64,000 bases of DNA from Eledone cirrhosa (Eukaryota): the NCBI GenBank assembly GCA_964016885.1, contig OZ024755.1:14880001-14944000 (forward strand), written 5' to 3'. Shown here piece by piece: positions 8,155-61,070 of this stretch; within the stretch, counting starts at the first letter, position 1, and every line of letters begins with the position of its first letter. Made by a program: the position numbers and the translations under genes. Below the pieces are notes generated by a model. It was not told the DNA's origin and made no database searches. It saw only the letters and a program-made list of their open reading frames with translations.

Positions 8155-8199
8155 TCAAAATATACCAAAGGAATATAATAGACAAATTCCATAGGGCTG

Positions 8200-10835
8200 A
8201 AAATCAGAGACATGAGGGCGACCGAACAGTTAGCAGCTTCTATCCCGGTCGGCCGCCCTCAAGTCTGTGACACACTGATAGCACATATGAAGCAACTAAA
8301 AACAGTAATATGTGTCACATATAGGACGCCTGATACCCCCAGTCATGAGGATAGCCTCAGTAGCATAGAAGAGGTCCTTGACAAACTCGACCAGGGTCTC
8401 ACCATTCTACTGCTGGGAGACTTAAACCTGCCAAAGGGCCACCTCTTCCCTGGAATGACGTCAATAGAACAGAGACAGACGAAGTTCCTGCTGGCCCTCA
8501 CACACAGGCTGTTCATGGAACAAGCAGTACTCCTCCCAACAAGAGGCGAAAATGTCCTGGACCTCTGTTTTACAAACAACGAAGTGCTCATCCATAATGT
8601 AAAGGTGACTCCAACAATGTTCTTGGATCATAACTTAGTAGAACTAATGATATCTGGTCCGAGAGAACCTACAGAGACACAACCATCAAGAAGCACCGGG
8701 ACGTTATCCAGCCTTAACTTCTACAAGGCTAACTGGAAAAAGATCAAGAGAGAAATCCGGAAGCATACATGGAGCGAAAATACCGCCACACAAGACACCA
8801 AAACTTCATGACAACGATACACACTATATGCAAAAAGGGCCAACAGACACAAACATTTTATTCCTAGAAATAGGAAAATCCTTATGGGACGAAGAACCAA
8901 GCTCTCAAACCAGTTGAATGCACAACAAGAAAACAAAAACAAGAAGGAATCCTATTTGAAACGTGCACTACTTGACACAGCGATTGCACTCAAACTTTCC
9001 CATGAAAATGAGAGGGCAAAGAAAGAAAGCAGGGCCATAGAAAATATTAAAACAAAGCCTAAGGCCTTCTTTAAATTTGCAAAAGAGACTGCCTCGGTAC
9101 ACTGCAAGATTGGGCCACTCTTCCATACAGACGGTTCATTAACCGAGAATCCCCAAGAGATATGTGAAATACTGAACGAACAGTACAAAAGTAGTGTGTT
9201 CACATGTCCACAACAAAGCCAGAGGAGTTATTTGATGCCACAACACTACATGAAGATATGGCGACCATTAACTACATAGACATAACGGAGGAGGATGTGG
9301 TATGCGCCGCAGATGAAATTAGAACAGACTCAGCTGCTGGACTCCCAGTAGTCCTCTTAAAAGCGTGTAAGCGGGCCTTAGCAACTCCACTGAAGATGCT
9401 CCTGGGCTAGCAGTATACTACCCAGGGAGCTGAAAAAAGGCACGATATGCCCTATCCATAATGGAGGTAGTAGAGTGTAGGCCAAAAATTATAGGCCAGT
9501 CTCCCTGACTTCGCATATCAGTAAGGTGATGGAGCGAGTTGTCAGAAAGAAACTGATCACTTTTTTCGAGGAGCATGGCTTTCGCCCAGGAAGAAGCTAC
9601 CTTACACAGCTGCTACATCACAACAACTGCTAGACAGCTCACATGTGGACGTGATATATCTTGACTTTGCGAAGGCCTTTGACAAGGTCGACCACGGAAT
9701 GATATGTCACAAACTACACGGACTCGGCATAACTGGAAAAGTAGGTGAGTGGTTGCATGACTTATTAAAGGACAGAAGCAGCAAACGGGGGCCTTTCAAA
9801 GGAAACATTTATAACAAGTGGAGTGCCCCAAGGGACAGTTCTGCGACCACTACTGTTTTTGGTGGCTCTCTCAGACATTCCCTCTGTAGTACATACAACA
9901 ACATCCCTCACTAGCTATGTTGATGACACTAAGGTAGCACAAGCAATCAAAAACCCGGCTGACGCTACCCTTTTACAACAAGATTTGATGCCATATACAA
10001 ATGGGCGGAAGAAAACATGCAGATTAATGCTGGCAAATTCCAAGCCCTACAATACGAACCTGCAAACACAAATACAGTACAACACAGTTACGCAGGACCA
10101 CGAGGGACCGTTATCCCCGTGTCAAAATCGATACGAGACCTGGGTATAGACATGAGCGATGATGCATCTTTTTCCTCACACATCATGAAAGTGGCGACAA
10201 TGTACAGACGACTCGCTGGCTGGATCTTGAGGACTTTCCGGACAAGAGACCGTGGCACCATGTTGACACTATGGAGGACATTTTTCCTAAGCCGCCTGGA
10301 CTATTGCTCCCTGTTGGTGTCACCCCATAGTGTCAAACTAACCACGGATCATGAGGCGATCCACCAAGGGGATTGCACGATGAAGGAGAAAATCTACTGG
10401 GAGAGGCTAAAATAACTAAACCTCTACTCCTTGGAACGAAGACGTGAGAGATACGCAGTGATCTACATGTGGAAAATCCTGGAGGGACTAGCACCAAATT
10501 TTGGCATTAGGAGCTGGAGCAACCGTTGAACAGGACGTCACTGTGTGGTGCCAAATTTCCCGTCTTCCACATTTAGAATAAGGAGCAGATACTGTAATAG
10601 CCTGGGTTTCAAGGGCCCTCAACACTTCAACAAGCTGCCGAGGGATCTGAGAGATCTGCATGGTGTGGAGGTCGATGTCTTCAAGAAACATCTCGACACC
10701 TTGCTATCCAGGATCCCGGATGAGCCCACAGCAAGGCATAAGCGAAACCTAAGGGCAGCAGCAACAAAATCCCTCTTACACCAGTGGCCAACCAATACAG
10801 GCTGCAGATAAAATGTGTAGCAACAAGGGCGGTAA
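8200..10835 (+). mobile_element. Decayed CR1-group (jockey-like) LINE ORF2: AP endonuclease plus reverse transcriptase, many frameshifts
   Basis: Motifs in correct order: LLLGDLNLP, PTRGENVLDLCFTN, DHNLV; NYRPVSLTS, YLDFAKAFDKVDH, PQGTVL.PLLFL, YVDDTK, RDLGI, YWERLK..L.SLERRR, FKKHLD..L..IPDEP; ends in (TA)n. Confidence 0.93.
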
Positions 10836-14290: not shown

Positions 14291-20470
<6,180 letters not shown>

Positions 20471-21077
20471 CAGGTCACCAGTTGGTGCTACTGGTAACAT
20501 GTATCCCAGTACAACCTGTCTCATGGTCGGGTCGTTGGCGACTAAACTGGCAACCCCACCAAGGTTTCTTGGTGAGGAGGGTGACTTTGGACATCCTGCA
20601 GGACTAAAAACAAAACCTGTCAAAGGGCAAGGGAGCTCTTAAGAGTCAATAGCCATCCAAAATCACCGGGAGAGATGACCCCTTAGCCTTTGTCAAGGCA
20701 GAATTCTAGGAGAAGGAAAACTCTGATATAACACCTGCAACCCTGATGGTATCCAATGATGTTGACTTGTTCTTCTTTTTGGCAAATATCATCTTGGTTA
20801 AGAGAGTGGGACTGGCTTTGTGCAGTGCCTTTGCTCACTATAAAAGCTTCACAGCACAGGCATTGCTTTATATCTGGAGATCTCTCTACACTTGTCGTCA
20901 CATGGTACCATGGGCCCAGCACTATGTGTCAATAATTGTCACAAGTGTAGTGTTTGTACCAGAGTTTTCAAGTCGCTGGCTGGACTAAAAAGTCACATTC
21001 GTTCAGCGCATTGGTAGGGGTTCTCCTACATGGATATAAAGTAGTGGCCGTACTCGAAAACGAGTTGGCAGCCACCA
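20471..21077 (+). mobile_element. Non-autonomous, internally deleted RTE-clade retroelement (~610 bp), copy 1
   Basis: Highly similar to the inverted copy at 40252-40862; 20937-21017 encodes [26 protein letters not shown], the C2H2 finger typical of RTE ORF2 C-termini; structured 5' leader; no RT motifs in between. Confidence 0.8.
20472..20550 (+). ncRNA. Candidate degenerate HDV-like ribozyme at the element 5' end
   Basis: P1 aggtcac/atggtcg (imperfect), J1/2 hairpin ccagt..actgg, P2 ccagt/actgg, P3-L3 aca-acctgt-ctc (imperfect), J1/4 GG, P4 tcg-ttgg-cga, J4/2 CTAA. Confidence 0.55.
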
Positions 21078-21350
21078 TATATATATATATGTATGTATAT
21101 ATATGTATATATATATATGTATGTATATATATGTATATATATATATGTATATATATATGTATGTATATATATGTATATATATATATGTATGTATATATAT
21201 GTATATATATATATGTATATATATATATGTATATATATATATGTATATATATATATGTATATATGTATATATATATATGTATATATATATATGTATATAT
21301 ATATATGTATATATATATATGTATATATATATATGTATATATATATATGT

Positions 21351-21405
<55 letters not shown>

Positions 21406-27370: not shown

Positions 27371-27864
27371 TTTTTTTTTTTTTACTTATTAAAAACACAT
27401 GTTCTATATAAACTTCTTTCCGACATCAGTTCCCCGATCCAGGCTCTTAACCATGTCGCTAAAGTGCAGGAAAAAAACATTCCTAGCTTCTTTATTTAGA
27501 AACTTCCTATTCACTTACGTTCTTTACAGTCCGTTTTTCTCAGCTTCTTGTAGACTCTTGATTCATTTTTGTCAAAATTAAATGAACACAATTCGTATAT
27601 AATTTGTAAACTTTATTCATTTTTGTCAAATTAAAATTTTCTTTATTCATTTTTGTCAAAATAAAATTTTCTTTATTCATTTCTGTCAAAATAAAATGAA
27701 AATGCTCTTTATTAACAGACACTACGCCATTCCCACTAGTTACGGCAAACAACACAGGATGTGAACTTGAAGGCTGGACATCTGTAAAAAGAAATGAATA
27801 TACGTTATCAATAAAAAAAAATATTAAACTTAATAAAATTCATCCAATTTTGTATTTTATTATA

Positions 27865-28137
27865 TATACATTTTTAATTTCCTCTATTTAAATGTTTCTA
27901 CATTTGGCACAAGGCCAGCAATTAAATAGTACATTACTGGTACTTTATTTTATCGACCCCGTAAGGATGATAGGCAAAGTTAACATTGACAGGATTTGAA
28001 CTCAGATCGAGGTTAACTTTGCCTTTCGGGGTCGATAAAATAAAGCGCCAGTAATGTACTGAGTAATTGCTGGCCTTGTGCCAAATCTAGAAACAATTAT
28101 ATATACATTTAAATAGAGGAAACTAAAAATGTATATG
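27865..28137. mobile_element. Head-to-head inverted pair of truncated family-B SINE 3' halves plus flanks, forming a hairpin
   Basis: tttggcacaaggccagcaatt...tttattttatcgacccc...ggcaaagttaac is mirrored by gttaactttgcc...ggggtcgataaaataaag...aattgctggccttgtgccaaa. Confidence 0.8.
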
Positions 28138-31100
28138 AAGTTTCTTAAAGAAAGAAAATAAGAATGTAGATGAAGTGCATAAAGAAAGAAACTTTTTGTT
28201 TTTTAGGAATGTCAATGACGAAAAAAGAAACTAGGAATGTAAATGTTGCGTACGTTAAAGTTATATCGATCTAATTAACACTAATCAACAGTTTGATTAC
28301 GATATCTAAAAAGAATTCGTTCAAAATTTAAGTCGTCGGGCTTTAAAATCGTGAGTTCGATTCTCAGACGGGACTTTGCGTTGTGTACTTGAACAAAACA
28401 CTTTATTTCCCGTTGCTCCAAATCACACAGTAGCATTTAGTTGGACAACAAAAGGTTTCTTTCTACGTCCAAGAAATGAAGCTGCCTTGCTTCATTGGGT
28501 GTGAAATAAATAAAAATGTAGTTGTATATAGAGGTTTCTTAGAAGGAAAGGTATATTCCTGCTGAGAGAAGGTTTATATATTTTTCTTAGTAGACATTCT
28601 CTAAAAAGAGAAGATAGTAAAACGTATTTTTCTGTCTCAAGAATATCTGCTAGTATTGGCAAGCTTTACTATGTATTCAATAAAGAAAGATCTACAGAAT
28701 GATGTTTATAGAAAGAAATTTTAGTTATACTTCTTAGAAAGTATATATATAGTGTCGAGATGGCTTAGTTTAGTTTCTTAGAAGAGGTAACACTATTTCT
28801 ATGTGTAGTTTGTTTTTTTATTTTATTTAAAATAAAGCATGTGTCGAGAGGTTGTAGATGTTCCAAAAAGCCACATAAGCACTATATCCAAAGTGTGATA
28901 GTTATTGATATAAAGTGTGTATTTAATAAAACGTAAGATAGTTCGAGTGTAGCGCAAAGAAAACATTACATACCTTTATACACGAGGAAAGCAATATCCA
29001 AAATAAATTTTTTTCAACGAACCGGAAGTCAATCGAAAAAAGAGAAGAGTTCCATAAAGCGGAAGAGCAAAAATATACTGGGTAATTGCAGGCCTTGTGC
29101 CAGATGTAGAAACAATTATATATACATTTAAATAGAGGAAACTAAGAATGTATATGAAGTTTCTTAAAGAAAGAAAATAAGAATGTAGATGAAGTGCATA
29201 AAGAAAGAAACTTTCTTTGTTTTTTAGGAATGACACTGACGAAAAAAGAAACTAAGATGTAAATGAATTGTTGAAAAGGAACAAAGAAAGTAAATGAAGT
29301 TTCCTAAGAATGTAAATGGTTCTATGTTACGTAGGTTAAAGTGATATCAATCTAGTTAACACTGATCAACAGTTAATCTTTGATTACGATGATGATATCT
29401 AAAAAGAATTCGTTCAAAATTTAAGTCGGCAGGCTTTATAATCGTGAGTTCGATTCTCAGACCGGACTTTGCGTTGTGTACTTGAACAAGACACTTTATT
29501 TCACGTTGCTACAAATCACACAGTAGAAATTAGTTGGACAACAAAAAATATCTTTCTACGTACAAGAGAACACATGTGTGCGAGAAATGAAGCTGGCACG
29601 CTTCATTGGGTGTGAAAGAAATAAAGATAATAAAAATGTAATTGTATATAGAGGTTTCTTAGAAGGAAAGGTATATTCCTGTAGAGAGAAGGTTTATATA
29701 TTTTTCTTAGTATATAGTCTCTAAAAAGAGAAGATAGTAAAACGTATTTTTCTGTCTCAAGAATATCTAGTGTTGACAAGGTTTACTATGTATTCAATAA
29801 AGAAGGATCTGCAGAATGATGTTTATAGAAATAAATTTTATTTATACTTCTTAGAAAGTATATATATAGTGTCGAGATCTCTCAGCTTAGTTTCTTAGAA
29901 GAGGTAACACTATTTGTATGTGTAGTTTGTTTTTTATTTTATTTAAAATAAAGCATGTGTCGAGAGGTTTAAGATGTTCCAGAAAGACACATAAAATACC
30001 ACTTCACATGAACACAATATCCAAAGTGTGAGAGTTATTGATATAAAGTGTGTATTTAATAAAATGTAAGATAGTTCGAGTGTAGCGCAAAGAAAACATT
30101 ACATACCTTTATACACGAGGAAAGCAATATCCAAAATGAATCTTTTTCAACGAACCGGAAGTCAATCGAAAAAGGAGAAGAGTTCCATAAAGAGGAAGTA
30201 ACTCTAAATAAAGGAAGAGCAAAAATGTACTGGGTAATTGCAGGCCTTGTGCCAGATGTAGAAACAATTATATATACATTTAAATAGAGGAAACTAAGAA
30301 TGTATATGAAGTTTCTTAAAGAAAGAAAATAAGAATGTAGATGAAGTGCATAAAGAAAGAAACTTTTTGTTTTTTAGGAATGTCAATGAAGTGTTGAAAA
30401 GGAACAAAGAAAGTAAATGAAGTTTCCCAAGAAGAAACTAAGAATGTAAATGGTTCTATGTTATGTAGGTTAAAGTGATATCAATCTAGTTAACACTGAT
30501 CAACAGTTAATCTTTGATTACGATGATGATATCTAAAAATAATTCGTTCAAAATTTAAGTGGTCGGGCTTTACAATCGTGAGTTCGATTCTCAGACCGGA
30601 CTTTGCGTTGTGTACTTGAACAAGACACTTTATTTCACGTTACTCCAAATCACACAGTAGAAATTAGTTGGACAACAAAAGAATTCTTTCTACGTACAAG
30701 AGAACACATGTGTGCGAGAAATGAAGCTGCCACGCTTCATTGGGTGTGAAAGAAATAAAGATAATAAAAATGTAGTTGTATATAGTGTTTTCTTAGAAGT
30801 AAAGGTATATTCCTGTAGAGAGATGGTTTATATATTTTTCTTAGTAGACATTATATAGTCTCTAAAAAGAGAAGATAGTAAAACGTATTTTTCTGTCTCA
30901 AGGTTTACTATGTATTCAATAAAGAAAGATCTGCAGAATGATGTTTATAGAAAGAAATTTTAGTTATACTTCTTAGAAAGTATATATATAGTGTCGAGAT
31001 CTCTTAGCTTAGTTTCTTAGAAGAGGTAACACTATTTGTATGTGTAGTTTTATTTTTATTTAATTTAAAATAAAGCATGTGTCAAGAGGTTTAAGATATC

Positions 31101-31345
31101 CCAGAAAGACATAAAATACCACTTCACATAAACACAATATCCAAAGTGTGAGAGTTATTGATATAAACTGTGTATTTAATAAAATGTAAGATAGTTCGAG
31201 TGTAGCGCATAGAAAACATTACATACCTTTATACACGAGGAAAGCAATATCCAAAATGAATTTTTTTCAAAGAACCGGAAGTTAATAGAAAAAAAGAAGA
31301 GTTCCATAAAGAGGAAGTAGCTCTAAATAAAGGAAGAGCAAAAAT
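28060..31345. repeat. Three tandem copies of a ~1.0-1.15 kb unit containing SINE fragments
   Basis: Marker gtaattgc.ggccttgtgcca at ~28063, 29082, 30234; gagttcgattctcagac at ~28353, 29446, 30580; acattacatacctttatacacgagg at ~28963, 30096, 31216. Confidence 0.93.
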
Positions 31346-32079: not shown

Positions 32080-32965
32080 TGACCAGCGTTTAGTTGGCCG
32101 TAGGAAATACTATAAAAATGCTTCTTTGGCCATAGGAGATATATGTGAAGTATATGCTTCTCTCACCCTCTAACCTGCAATTCACCAACTGCGAGGAGGG
32201 TGGTTTTGGTGACCAGGGTTTAGTTGGCTGTAGAGGATCCTACGATAAGTTTACACCCTCTAAGCAGGCACTGATTATAGTTAATTAGCCGTAGGACATC
32301 CTATGGGACGTATGCACTATAAAACTGCTTCTTTGGCTATAAGGGATACTATGTGAAGTATATGCTTCTCTCGCCCTCTAACTTGTAGCTGGCCGTAGGA
32401 AACACTATGGGAAGTATATACTCTAAAACTGCTTCTTTCGCCCTCTGACATTGACCAGGGTTTAGCTGGCCGTAGAGGATTGTACGAGATATTTACGCCC
32501 TTAAAGTCCTTCAATTGCCCTCTCACGGCATTGGCCAGGGCTTAGCTAGCTGTTGAGGTTCCTACGAGATGTTTACACCCTCTAAGCAGGCACCGATCAT
32601 GGTGTAGTTGAACGTAGAGGATCCTATGACAATTTAACGCCCTTAAACTGCTTATTTTGCCATCTAACCTGGCATTGGCCAAGAGGATCCCACGAGAATT
32701 ATGTACTTAAACTGCATCAATCACCCTCTCACTTGGAATTTACCAACTGTGGAGGATGGTGCTTATGTCCCCATCTAACCTGGCATTGACCAAGTGGATC
32801 CCATGAGAAGTATACGTCCTTAAACTGGTCTCTTCACACCCTTAGCAGGCACATACTATGGTTTAGCTGGCCGTAGAGAATCCCACGAGAAGTATACGTC
32901 CTTAAACTGCTTCAATCACACTCTACTCTGGAATTGACCAACTGTGGAGGAGGGTGGTTTTGGTG
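32080..32965. repeat. Degenerate GC-richer minisatellite (variable ~60-80 bp modules)
   Basis: Recurrent tttagctggccgtag, gaggatcc.acgaga, ccttaaactgctt and ctctaacctggcatt motifs in shuffled order. Confidence 0.8.
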
Positions 32966-33049
32966 TGTTACATAGGTATACTTCAAAGGTACTAATTGCT
33001 TACTAGGAGTAGCAGATTGACAATTAACTGCACACATGTAGAGTGGAAA

Positions 33050-33163
33050 TCACCTTCCTCACCAAGTAAACTTGGTGGGGTTGCCGGTTTAGTCGCCGAC
33101 GATCGGACTATGCGACAGGTTCTACAGGGTTACATGATACCAGTAGTACTCAAGAGTGATCCG

Positions 33164-33165
<2 letters not shown>
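33050..33165 (-). mobile_element. Diverged 5' fragment of the RTE derivative, including the HDV-like fold (33084-33162)
   Basis: Minus strand ggatcac...ccctgtagaacctgtcgcatagtccgatcgtcggcgactaaaccggcaaccccaccaag aligns to 20472-20585. Confidence 0.8.
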
Positions 33166-56267: not shown

Positions 56268-56389
56268 GAAGATGAGTAATATTGTAGAACAATAAACTAT
56301 GCATATATCAGATAAGTAGCACTCAACAGTTGGTAGAACTGGTGTATATATTAAAGAAGAAATGAAAAGATGGTTAAAAAAGTTCCATA

Positions 56390-56459
56390 TATTTTATTAT
56401 GCGCATTTCGAAAACAATATCATCCTGGGACAAAAATTGTGTTCTCATCAGATAAAATA
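56390..56459 (-). ncRNA. Type I hammerhead ribozyme, intact core
   Basis: Minus strand: tattttat-CTGATGA-gaacacaat ttt tgtcc ca ggatg atattgttttc-GAAA-tgcgca-TA-ataaaata. Confidence 0.88.
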
Positions 56460-56594
56460 AGGTAACATGATATGAGGTCTAAAAAGACTTTCAACAGGAA
56501 AGTGCAAAGTCTACATATACTCTTATATTTCTGTCATATGTAGACTTTGCACATTCCTGTTGAAAGTGTTTTTAGGCCTCATAATATGCTACCT

Positions 56595-56664
56595 TATTTT
56601 ATCTGATGAGAACACAATTTTTGTCCCAGGATGACGTCGTTTTCGAAATGCGCATAATAAAATA
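56595..56664 (+). ncRNA. Type I hammerhead ribozyme, intact core
   Basis: tattttat-CTGATGA-gaacac...gttttc-GAAA-tgcgca-TA-ataaaata; helix III palindrome atgcgcat. Confidence 0.88.
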
Positions 56665-58353
56665 TATGGAACTTTTTTAACCATCTTTTCATTTATATAT
56701 ATGTGTGTGTATGTGTGCGTGTGTGTGTGTGTGTGCGTGTGTGTGTCTGTGTCTGTGTGTGTGTCTGTGTCTGTGTCTGTGTGTGGGGGTGGGGTGTGGG
56801 GTGGGGGGTGGGGGGGTCTATGTATGTACACAGATATGAATGTGTGGTTTTGTATTTAGATTTTTGGGGCTTTTCTATTTGCGCTCACACAAGATTATAT
56901 TTCCACCCCTCTGAACAATGCAGAATTGATTGCAACAATCCTGGGATTAATATTTTAATGTTAATACGGTTGATTGAAACGCTCGATTAAATCTAAAGTT
57001 CTAACTCGATGTGTTTCTAGGTTTAACATTTAAAACTTCAGTACAAGAGGACTTCAGCTATTATAGCAAGTATTTGAACGTTATTAAACTGATTTAATAA
57101 TGTAGTTGTTCTCTCATCGGAAATCTATCTTTAAAAGAAGTCACGCACAACTGCTGACTTGAAGGGCAGTTTTAATCAATTGCGACTGACTGAGATTTTA
57201 CATAAATGTATGACTACATCTATGTGAATGCCTGCGTATATATACGAGTGTATGTGCCCATATCTATGAGCGTGTATTTACATTGTTAAAGGACATATTT
57301 ACTTTATGTTTCATTCCCAATTCAAATTATATCACCAAAACATGTATATGGTATTTCAATGCACTGCTACAGTCACGTAATAGTAAAATCTTTAGTGAAC
57401 AACATTGCAATTGACACGATGAATATTCTTTAGAAAATCTCTTGAAATAACTTCTAAAAGATTTGCGTTTCCACTTTCGTTTTTACTGTAAACCACACTT
57501 AATTGGACTCTTGTTATTGCTAGTTTAACATTGACGTTACCTTCAGTAGCAGCAACGCCCTATTAATATATTCCGTTGGTCATTACATAGTAGAGCAATT
57601 AGCGTGTTTAATCTCTAGCTGGCCATATAACGACCATTATATCATCGTTAATAAATTATCCTGTTTGATATTCACAGGTTATTTCTCGTAGCTTTGAGCA
57701 TGTGCTGCAACGAACATCTGTAATACTGTTATAGATATTCCACTCACTCACATTATATGTTCCCTCTAACACAACCTGCTCGTAGAATTTAGATAGTTTC
57801 GAGATTTTGCTTCGTGATTAATCTCTTAATTAGTTTAGTTTCGGGGTATTTACACTGGTCAGTGGCATTGCTTGACGGAGTGTCTATTTGTGTAATGTGT
57901 AAGAATACATGTGAATTTTATATATGTAAATGTATGAATATATATATATATATATGGGAGTGTGTATGTACAGATTAAGGTGTTCATGACAGTGTGAAAT
58001 GAAGAGTTCAACGTACTGTTCATATATGTATTGCTTGATATGGCTTTAGGAGAAAACTATTTTTGTCTCTTTATCTAATTAGAATACGTACGCAAGTGTG
58101 AGAAACCTCTACGTGATTACATGTGAGCGAATATGTGATTCTATGTATGTATATAAGAAGGTACAGAAAAATATAGTATTCTAGTAATACATTGATATAT
58201 AATAGCCTTACAATATGAGAATGTGCGTAAATTTTCAGACACATTTCCAATCAAGCTGTTTCCTGAAGGACTGAATCTAATAACCTTAAGAGACATATTT
58301 TAGCAAATTTCACTATTTCAAAAGGCACTACATTATCCTTATTATTATTATCC

Positions 58354-59049: not shown

Positions 59050-61070
59050 CTTTCTTTATTTGCCACATTACAAGACTTGACGGGGGGGGGTTACATAAAA
59101 ATCATATAACTTTAACATTAATAAATAACAATAAACTATACATAATAAAATAACAATTGAAATCCCGAGTAGGGAGGAACGTTAGTGCAGTGTTGTTTTA
59201 CACCCCATGGATAGAACAACCCTCAACACCAAGAACACTTTTTGTAGGTGTTCCCGTCTTCCCTCTGTTTATCTTCCTCAACCAATAGGTTTATATACAG
59301 AGAACGCCCATTCACTCGGGCCATTTTCACCAAAATCACCCACGTTTCAGCGAATTTACTGGGGTGTAGCACCTGTCTCTCAACTCTCACCTACCTTCTG
59401 AAGTGGTACTTAAAGAAGGGGATAAGTTGTTGTCCGGAGAGAAAGCTGTTTGCCCTCAGTCCTTATTACCTCTTTCGCCATAGCCACCAAACAGAGGAAA
59501 ACCGTCTCTTATTCTTAAATGAAGGCGGCAGGTTGACCCACACGATGGACCCGGCTGACAACTGGATGCGTCCCACACGTGACAGTAGCTGTTCGACATA
59601 ATTCCACAGGTCGGTCACCCATGGGCACTGAACGATTGCTTGCAGAACGGTTTTGATGTCCTGCTCGTATCTTGGACAGGTCCTTTTTACAGGATCTCTG
59701 CCAGGACATCCGTAGCCTGTAGATTTAGTCTCGAACTGGTAGAGCTCGTGGGTATCACTGCCGGGCCAGAGACATCTGAAAGTTACCCATAGGCCCTGGA
59801 CGGAAAGTCCTCCCGAACAGACTGGTCAGTTCGTCCTCCTCGATGCCTAGAGTTTCCCCGAGAACGTCGTCGCATTTATCCTCCACTAATCCCCTATAGA
59901 ATGTCAAAGAGGAGTCTCCACTGATTGCCGTTTCCGCTTGCTAGAGGGCTGTGAGCGCCTGAAGGCACTCAAGGTGCCAGGCACCATTTTCGGTCTTCGC
60001 TTGACCCAGGACTGCACCTCTGTTAGTGAGACGAGTTGTGGAAGAGCTTGTCTCACAAACTACAGCCACACCGATTCACCGGTCAGGAATACCAGGAGAT
60101 GGCGTAGCCTCAGCGCGTGTTTGCGCATCATCAGCCACGGCATGCCCAGCCCTCCGTTAGAAGGGTGTTGACAGCAGATGGATCTCCTCACCGATGGAGC
60201 TTGTTTCTTCCACATGTACTTGAAGATTAGGTTTGAGGTTTTGGCGGGGACAAGGCATGACTGTCAAGCGGTAGTAAATGACGGACGCTATGTAAGTGTT
60301 CACCACCTCCGCTCGACCTGTCAAGGAGAGTTTGCACTCAGCCCACTTCTGGGTGAGTGCAAACACCTTCGCCGTGACCTCGTTCCAGTTCTTGTCCACC
60401 TGGAGGTCAGGACCAAACAAAACCCCGAGTAATTTCACCGGTGCTTCCGTCCAGCGTTTAACGACACTGTCGGAAGGTATGGGTTTGCCTCTCCATGTGC
60501 CGAGCTGCAAACTGACAGACTTGTTTGGGTTTAGTCTTGCTCCTGTCAACGTTTCGTATTCCTGTAATAGGTTGCCGATTACCCGATTTCCGAGGTTTTC
60601 GACACTATTACGGTTATGTCGTGGGCATAGGCCGACGCTGCTTTCCGCAGTCCTGGTTCGATCGGGATGCCCTGCAACAGCTCCAACTTCCGCAATAATG
60701 GCTCGAGAGTCAGTACATACAGAATTGAGGAGAGAGGGCATCCCAGACGGATGGAACACATGATTTGGAATGGCTCCGATAGGTAGCCATTGACCTTGAC
60801 TGCCGAGCAGATGTTGCTGTGCATGGCAGCGATGGTGGTGTGCATTGCAGCCTCTGAAGACGGGATCGAAGCCGGCCGCCTTGAGACCCGCCTCCAACTA
60901 TTGATGGTTGACCCTATCAAATGCCTTAAACTGATCTAAATTGATCACAGCCCCAGCAAAGCCATGTTTTCAACCTTACCTCTCTATAATGTATCGCATG
61001 AGGTGGAGGTTGTCGTGTATGGACCTGGTCGGGATTGAACACGTTTGAGCTCCCCTACAAGGTTCTCGAC
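59050..61070 (-). mobile_element. Decayed, 5'-truncated Tx1/L1-clade LINE ORF2 (reverse transcriptase) with 3' UTR
   Basis: LDQFKAFDRVNH, VKVNGYLSEPF, IRLGCPLSSILYVLTLEPL, SAYAHDIT, GARLNPNKS, VKLLGV, LSLTGRAEVVNTY; frameshifts and stops. Confidence 0.9.

Follow-up and report, generated by a model that had tools for sequence, protein, structure and literature searches.

The 64,000-nt stretch of DNA analyzed here (the window) contains a ~610-bp repeat that is best explained, with moderate confidence, as a high-copy, non-coding derivative of an RTE-clade LINE: it would be copied in trans via a 3′ stem-loop into microsatellites, its structured head would not cleave, and its start would be set by Pol II initiation. 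The short element likely arose when such a LINE lost its interior. An RTE protein likely copies it in trans into TA-rich microsatellites, presumably by target-primed reverse transcription from the 3′ stem-loop, and its transcripts would arise from an internal Pol II promoter. The head appears to be a conserved 5′ module for which plain hairpins are predicted instead of the HDV double pseudoknot drawn in a preliminary description of this DNA. That description had taken the element for a bipartite RTE derivative freed from read-through transcripts by an HDV-like ribozyme. The first half of this interpretation is supported; the particular HDV-like fold drawn there, and with it release by self-cleavage in that fold, is not.

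Extent, copies and borders of the element

In copy 1 the repeat measures 607 to 610 bp and lies between TA/TATG microsatellites. Its parts and its copies in the window are as follows.

20469..21077, + strand: whole element, copy 1, ~610 bp, 5′-terminal G at 20469 (copy comparison, contig depth, leader alignment)
20469..20659, + strand: conserved head common to metagenome relatives L004/L007 and L005/L006, 76-84% identity (pattern scan, alignment)
20685..20739, + strand: RTE 5′-UTR motif with the TAGGAGAAGGAAAACTCTGA core, as in Ceph-SINE bodies, RTE-3_BF and AviRTE (PMC5786205 supplement; 80-91% matches in sequence comparisons)
20740..20940, + strand: middle segment, ~200 bp, throughout the family (even depth in sequencing run X1)
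20946..21017, + strand: C2H2 zinc-finger stub and stop codon (ORF translation, Pfam)
21044..21075, + strand: 3′ stem-loop, ACTCG-AAAA-CGAGT within GTGGC/GCCAC (folding compared with shuffles)
21078..21400, + strand: (TA)/(TATG)n tail or target microsatellite, with like repeats on the 5′ side (sequence; loose contig ends)
40253..40862, - strand: copy 2, full length, 23 differences from copy 1 (window self-comparison)
33047..33165, - strand: copy 3, head fragment of a sister subfamily, ~117 nt (window self-comparison, contig variants)

The element had been placed at 20471-21077, and it is present there, with its conserved start 2 nt further upstream, at G20469. Three copies had been compared. 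Copy 2 is indeed full length (96.2% identity to copy 1 over 608 columns), whereas copy 3 aligns with element positions 15-117 alone (85%), continues as unrelated sequence and is therefore a head fragment. The observations in the preliminary description thus stand in part: the element, the second copy, the finger and the short motifs are there; the pseudoknot order as drawn is at chance level, and leader and finger are not directly joined (see below). Since both flanks of the element are TA/TATG repeats, no target-site duplication can be read.

The surroundings are rich in repeats of other kinds. TA/TATG-type dinucleotide runs make up 34% of the window, and a 200-N run (an assembly gap) at 16706-16905 falls within microsatellite. 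Immediately downstream of copy 3 lies a degenerate short-repeat array (32109-32965), and a tandem array at 28053-31345 consists of about three ~1.1-kb units that are 83-87% alike. Self-complementary, MITE-like stretches occur at 1133-1592, 27864-28136, 49365-49733 and 56360-56694; pieces of the second recur at 35439, 54260 and 58425. A broken LINE of another family (8182-10800, + strand) retains endonuclease (PF14529, E 3.7e-8) and RT (PF00078) remnants in several frames, and a broken RT-bearing LINE at 59469-60935 (- strand) has 42-48% protein identity to elements in metagenome loci L030 and L042.

Abundance and variation of the family

The element or part of it is present in 20 of 24 listed sequencing runs. 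In run X1, 19,583 contigs match it, 13,465 of them at least 95% alike; all 30 bins along the element have depth, and among the pieces listed none spans the whole stretch. In this run the summed depth, which is not a copy number, exceeds the depth of single pieces (5-17) by orders of magnitude, and the family is therefore very abundant. Copy comparison and run X1 depth together describe a dispersed multicopy family of uniform structure. Depth is low in runs X7 (11 contigs) and X20 (2 contigs), and run X24 yielded no match; these three runs are uninformative on host range or horizontal transfer.

Loose contig ends at both element borders in run X1 are TA/TATG repeats. Some copies start internally (20666, 20675, 20712) beside microsatellite, as expected of 5′-truncated LINE-type insertions. 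A sister subfamily with the same TGTCAGGTCAC start accounts for 161 contigs (agreement 0.62), and long divergent pieces stop near 20627. The leader of copy 1 equals the majority sequence of the run, where no listed variant before 20631 exceeds 50%.

Resemblance of the body to bipartite RTE elements

As in bipartite non-autonomous RTE elements, the 5′ part of the element contains a stretch homologous to the RTE 5′ UTR, there is no endonuclease or RT coding region, and the 3′ tail is microsatellite-like. Bipartite RTE elements are very likely transcribed by Pol II (PMC5786205). The TAGGAGAAGGAAAACTCTGA-core motif also matches SINE copies in animal contigs within two bacterial assemblies (74-100% over 21-68 nt). 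These metagenome assemblies (G001 and G002; L021-L044) hold long contigs with many tRNA-CORE-RTE SINE copies that match the Sepioth-SINE1 text of PMC5786205; the SINE-rich contigs are likely host-animal contamination, and they have only the RTE motif in common with the element.

The middle segment gave no match in the Pfam, protein or sequence comparisons made. A 92-codon open frame (20710-20985, + strand) is kept in copies 1 and 2, has no Pfam or database match and is probably due to chance. The zinc-finger stub is as described earlier: a 22-letter peptide starts at 20946, passes the Pfam zf-C2H2 cut-off (25.7 versus 25.2 bits) and ends at a stop codon at 21015. It is likely the end of the parent ORF. 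Pfam found neither an RT nor an endonuclease domain in the four element peptides (12 peptides were scanned in all), in agreement with the earlier statement that no RT lies between leader and finger. The structured leader had also been said to join the finger directly. This is not so, since ~390 bp separate them, including the RTE 5′-UTR motif and the ~200-bp middle.

The 3′ stem-loop is more stable than expected (z = -3.55; 1 of 200 shuffles is equally stable) and is likely to serve as the recognition signal for the RT. An autonomous RTE could well end in such a finger, stem-loop and tail. When protein sequences were searched with the finger stub and with the 92-aa middle frame, no homologue emerged, which is weak evidence; a profile-free search with the finger returned multi-finger proteins only, the best 150 matches all having at least three matched stretches and none an RT-like motif. 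With the partner not found in these searches, we infer an RTE origin of the 3′ end from resemblance. An octopus RTE with a C2H2 finger, a feature called relatively rare in RTE, has its microsatellite beginning at the ORF end (PMC9115989).

Two other origins are very improbable, namely a Pol III SINE and descent from a non-RTE LINE such as an R2-type element with an N-terminal zinc finger. A lone C2H2 finger is not clade-specific and would suit a non-RTE parent. Against this, the RTE 5′-UTR motif is present and the finger ends 60 nt from the microsatellite tail. As for Pol III, the element contains no tRNA gene and, by comparison with a consensus, no A or B box, so that the tRNA-like head of a Pol III SINE is missing; it also has internal T-runs at 20776 and 20965. 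That the element is a non-autonomous bipartite RTE derivative and not a Pol III SINE, as first proposed, is thus supported by the motif, the finger stub, the lack of an RT domain and of A and B boxes, and the multicopy family.

A conserved head with a fixed start and different bodies

Of nine collection scans, the metagenome scan alone yielded true relatives of the head. The pattern scan there gave six loci, of which four are true relatives (two independent: L004/L007 and L005/L006) and two are chance matches. These two, L002 and L003, lie in an ammonium-transporter-like gene; L001, L008-L020 and L045-L055 were rejected as chance matches as well. A sequence-only model of the head found no further copy in 27 sources or 2 assemblies. 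Five leaders (copies 1-3, L004 and L006), four of them independent, were available for comparison.

All five leaders begin with GTC(A/G)G(G/A)TCA, so that the conserved 5′ boundary is G20469. The boundary letters are GTCAGGTCA in copies 1 and 2, L004 and L005/L006, and GTCGGATCA in copy 3. Heterogeneous 5′ ends extending upstream had been named in advance as grounds for abandoning the ribozyme; they are not what the five leaders have.

The metagenome relatives share the ~190-nt head (76-84%) but carry other bodies, and the same head thus stands on at least three different ones: that of the element, that of L004 and that of L005/L006. The element in L004 (1431-1742), ~310 bp long, combines this head with a BovA-type RTE motif (by eye) and a tail of CAA repeats; it is another short RTE derivative, in animal DNA that looks different. 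In L005 (1590-1700, - strand) and L006 (1-45), which represent one locus, the head is immediately preceded by tRNA-like sequence whose B box is 56 nt upstream. This arrangement may be a composite SINE or a simple insertion; in the former case, cleavage at the first G of the head would deprive that SINE of its promoter. Exchange of 5′ ends among RTE elements has been reported in plants (bioRxiv 2022.11.04.512097), and the head described here would have been exchanged between RTE lineages in a similar way.

The HDV-like fold first proposed

The motifs on which the ribozyme was first proposed (CCAGT/ACTGG, tcg-tYgg-cga and CTAA, with its C at 20542) are all present. Their nested double-pseudoknot order as drawn occurs no more than by chance. 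With HDV descriptors written from the HDV layout in strict, medium and relaxed versions, the strict and medium versions gave 0 matches in the three copies. With the relaxed ones, 10 and 12 of 150 shuffles equaled the best score of the leader, which itself came from a fold other than the one proposed; the latter surfaces only if mismatches in P3 are allowed. Rfam gave 0 gathering matches in the window, and its 37 matches at E ≤ 10 for the locus include no ribozyme family, whether HDV, twister or another; for L004 and L006 it gave one match, again to none of these families.

That this fold (P1 GGTCAC/ATGGTC, P2 CCAGT/ACTGG, L3 ACCTGT) is an active ribozyme is highly unlikely. Across the five leaders 79.5% of its 78 cells are paired. 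Its best parts are P4 (15/15 cells), which together with the C-N-A-A junction is invariant in 5/5 leaders, the core of P1 (21/23 cells) and a P2 with 5/5 Watson-Crick pairs in copies 1 and 2; the spacing from P2 to GG is also within 1-2 nt of the HDV norm. The junction C can, in addition, pair with G20531. P2 as a whole is paired in 84% of cells and has mid-helix mismatches in copy 3, L004 and L006, a kind of defect that is frequent in R2 ribozymes (PMC3774820). P3 is paired in 5/15 cells (33%; ACA/TCA register, five leaders) and has at most two of three pairs in either register, so that a 3-bp P3 closing L3 forms in neither. Instead of 6-7 bp from the first base of the element, P1 in the majority sequence has 5 bp including two G-U pairs and starts 3-4 nt inside G20469; as drawn, it depends on letters private to copy 3.

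Failure of the consensus to form P1 and P3 was to count against the proposal. It does fail at P3, and P1 persists as the 5-bp helix just described. Copy 3 has letters that make P1 better, and copy 2 has letters that do so for P3, but none of these is among the listed variants of at least 4% in run X1. A minority G at 20508 or 20513 would be expected under CpG correction, and neither is among the listed run X1 variants. Position 20548 is C in 11% of depth there, with no listed change at 20508, its partner in the proposed P2. This P2 also has a nested-fold probability of 0.0 in all five leaders, in a model that is blind to pseudoknots. Covariation in this register amounts to one pair, which is at shuffle level for four independent leaders.

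The cut had been predicted within ~3 nt of the element border. It is near the border but 3-4 nt inside the conserved 5′ end, and cutting there would cost the element the GTC retained in all five leaders. With P3 at 5/15 cells and P2 broken in 3/5 leaders, this fold is largely refuted.

A possible alternative HDV-ordered register

HDV-like or twister ribozymes have been reported at RTE 5′ ends (PMC5786205, PMC3774820, PMC8501958), which raises the prior for self-cleavage. The head could then be an active, non-canonical HDV-like ribozyme in another register, which would cut at the first base of the element and free it from read-through transcripts. We regard this as possible but doubtful. The register consists of P1 GTCAGGT/ACCTGYY from G20469, a J1/2 hairpin, P2 CTGGT/ACYGG, P3 GTA/TAC, L3 WCCCAG, P4 and CTAA, with 85.5% of 110 cells paired in the five leaders. 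It thus has a P1 of 7 nt from the terminal G (with 1-2 mismatches), a 3-bp P3 with a CC loop, and a 5-bp P2 after CTAA, by a descriptor fitted post hoc. The P2 core is 5/5 paired in all five leaders and tolerates the T/C change at 20548. In its loose form the descriptor fits 5/5 leaders and 42-77 of 3000 shuffles (1.4-2.6%); in its tight form it fits 2/5 leaders (copy 1, L006) and 2-8 of 3000 shuffles (0.1-0.3%), rates that are optimistic, since the sequences were already known when the descriptor was written. Cleavage in this register would fall on the conserved 5′ end, in line with reports on RTE ribozymes, and both mismatches and unusual L3 spacing are tolerated in R2 ribozymes (PMC3774820).

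In HDV-like folds, P2 stacks on P3 and cleavage occurs at the first base of P1 (PMC4908430). The alternative register departs from this layout: 5 unpaired nt separate P2 from P3 in all five leaders, and without this gap 0/5 fit. L3 is 6 nt long, P1 contains a fixed U-Y mismatch, and GG is 4 nt away. No two-sided change supports the register, no Rfam HDV-clan match was obtained, and a competing TACTGG/CCAGTA hairpin is favored. In its boldest form, this reading would make the head a portable module, swapped between RTE lineages of different animals, and a new HDV-like variant (5-nt P2-P3 insert, 6-nt L3) cutting at G20469 and switched off by TACTGG/CCAGTA refolding; this combination is unlikely, though not negligible. 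If the register does cleave, the HDV fold would be wider than thought, in that P2 and P3 would not have to be contiguous, and descriptor searches may be missing RTE ribozymes.

It is also conceivable, but improbable, that the head is a relic of an HDV-like ribozyme of the parent LINE, one that no longer cuts and is kept as a promoter, protein-binding site or translation switch. HDV-like pieces do occur in order (CC loop, short P4, CTAA, ACYGG), and misfolded inactive ribozymes with a switch to a non-ribozyme fold have been reported for trypanosomatid short elements (PMC4035085). However, the window and the metagenome relatives, whose heads are 76-84% identical, deviate from the HDV core in the same ways, and recent decay therefore seems an unlikely cause of the deviations.

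A predicted nested hairpin fold of the head

A multi-hairpin nested fold, predicted without covariation, fits the head best. Its helices CAGGT/ACCTG, TACTGG/CCAGTA, GTCGG/CYGGC and GTCG/CGAC are paired in 95 of 100 cells, compared with 79.5% for the fold first proposed and 85.5% for the alternative HDV register; both the nested model and the alternative register were derived from the sequences on which they were scored. The predicted features are as follows.

20469..20520, + strand: candidate 5′-terminal helix GTCAGGT (20469-75)/ACCTGTC (20514-20), core CAGGT/ACCTG paired in 24/25 cells, no two-sided change
20476..20487, + strand: small hairpin of variable sequence, CACC-AGTT-GGTG with other letters in L004 and copy 3 (by eye; MFE of copy 1 and L004)
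20489..20511, + strand: hairpin TACTGG/CCAGTA with an 11-nt loop, using the P2 strand of the fold first proposed (alifold; 28/30 cells)
20526..20551, + strand: hairpin GTCGG/CYGGC enclosing GTCG-NNGG-CGAC and a TAAA bulge, containing CTAA with C20542 (leader alignment pairing)
20557..20574, + strand: hairpin CACCAAG/CTTGGTG (run X1 variants)

The nested model pairs C20542, the proposed catalytic C, in 4/5 leaders. Alifold recovers TACTGG/CCAGTA and none of P1, P2, P3 and P4 of the fold first proposed; it pairs the 20526-20551 region otherwise than the nested model does. In single-sequence folding the CAGGT/ACCTG helix has a probability of at most 0.09, and TACTGG/CCAGTA one of 0.40-0.75 in 4/5 leaders and 0.0 in L004. 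There are no two-sided changes in the nested model, and 0/18 shared helices have one, in a set of four independent leaders that is too small to decide between models.

In the last hairpin, the loop ends 20564/20567 vary at matching frequencies in run X1 (G..T in the reference, T..A at 20/19%, C..G at 5/5%; mostly unphased), and copy 3 has T..A together at these positions. Matched first and last letters of a 4-nt loop are also seen in CUUG-type tetraloops. This variation is a hint of selection on RNA structure. Three further arrangements were rejected: a terminal helix of 20472-79 with 20580-87, which fits the three window copies and loses its partner strand in L004 and L006; a pseudoknot of 20496-500 with 20523-27, compensatory by eye on a hand-fitted alignment, which failed the helix search; and an HDV variant with a hairpin in L3, for which no P1 partner was seen by eye.

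Because plain hairpins and not the drawn HDV fold are predicted for the head, the fixed start at G20469 likely comes from transcription initiation.

Comparison with known systems

Earlier work has described bipartite RTE elements and connected them with 5′ ribozymes and Pol II (PMC5786205, PMC7245038). The closest class is that of bipartite, ORF-absent non-autonomous RTE LINEs (RTESINE1/2, WALLSI3, MAR4_MD, RTE-N2_Lch and Bov-A; PMC5786205), which like our element combine an RTE 5′-UTR part, a 3′ part and a microsatellite tail and have no ORF and no small-RNA head. The element differs from those treated there in being longer (610 bp) and in keeping a C2H2 stub and a ~200-bp middle. The Ceph-SINEs (OegopSINE, Sepioth-SINE1; PMC5786205) share the RTE 5′-UTR motif of 20685-20739; they carry tRNA and CORE heads instead, and the head of the element is unmatched in the two assemblies bearing such SINEs. 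The motifs of this head were not found in the PMC5786205 supplement. The literature searched, that supplement included, showed no such head, nor any HDV-like fold in which P2 and P3 are separated by an insert. The family itself may already be catalogued in Repbase or Dfam.

Short derivatives headed by ribozymes are known as well (PMC3414825, PMC4035085, PMC6765202). The R2 SIDEs (PMC3414825) and the trypanosomatid NARTc, RIME and SIDER elements (PMC4035085) are likewise short LINE derivatives that have lost internal sequence and start with a structured 5′ end, and the mechanism first suggested for our element has already been described for them. Their heads fit the HDV fold, and cleavage has been assayed for several of the trypanosomatid ones, whereas the head studied here has no canonical register and belongs to another clade. 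With RTE HDV-like ribozymes such as drz-Agam-2 (PMC4908430) it shares the 5′-terminal position, a J1/2-type hairpin, and a short hairpin followed by CTAA and ACYGG; it lacks their stacked P2-P3 with a 3-bp P3 directly before P1′, and it has no Rfam match. The RTE Perere-3, with twister T-variants (PMC8501958), resembles the element in clade and in having a structured 5′ end. A twister fold was rejected here: no twister family is among the Rfam matches, although T-variants may escape the model, and TAA and GAGGG are present but could not be arranged in the twister order.

The element thus adds one high-copy bipartite RTE derivative to a described class, and a ribozyme annotation is corrected. 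What makes its head interesting is conservation between this genome and metagenome contigs that look unrelated, with a fixed first base and on different bodies. Should the alternative register cleave, the head would offer an inexpensive way to test by what means the 5′ ends of RTE elements are defined.
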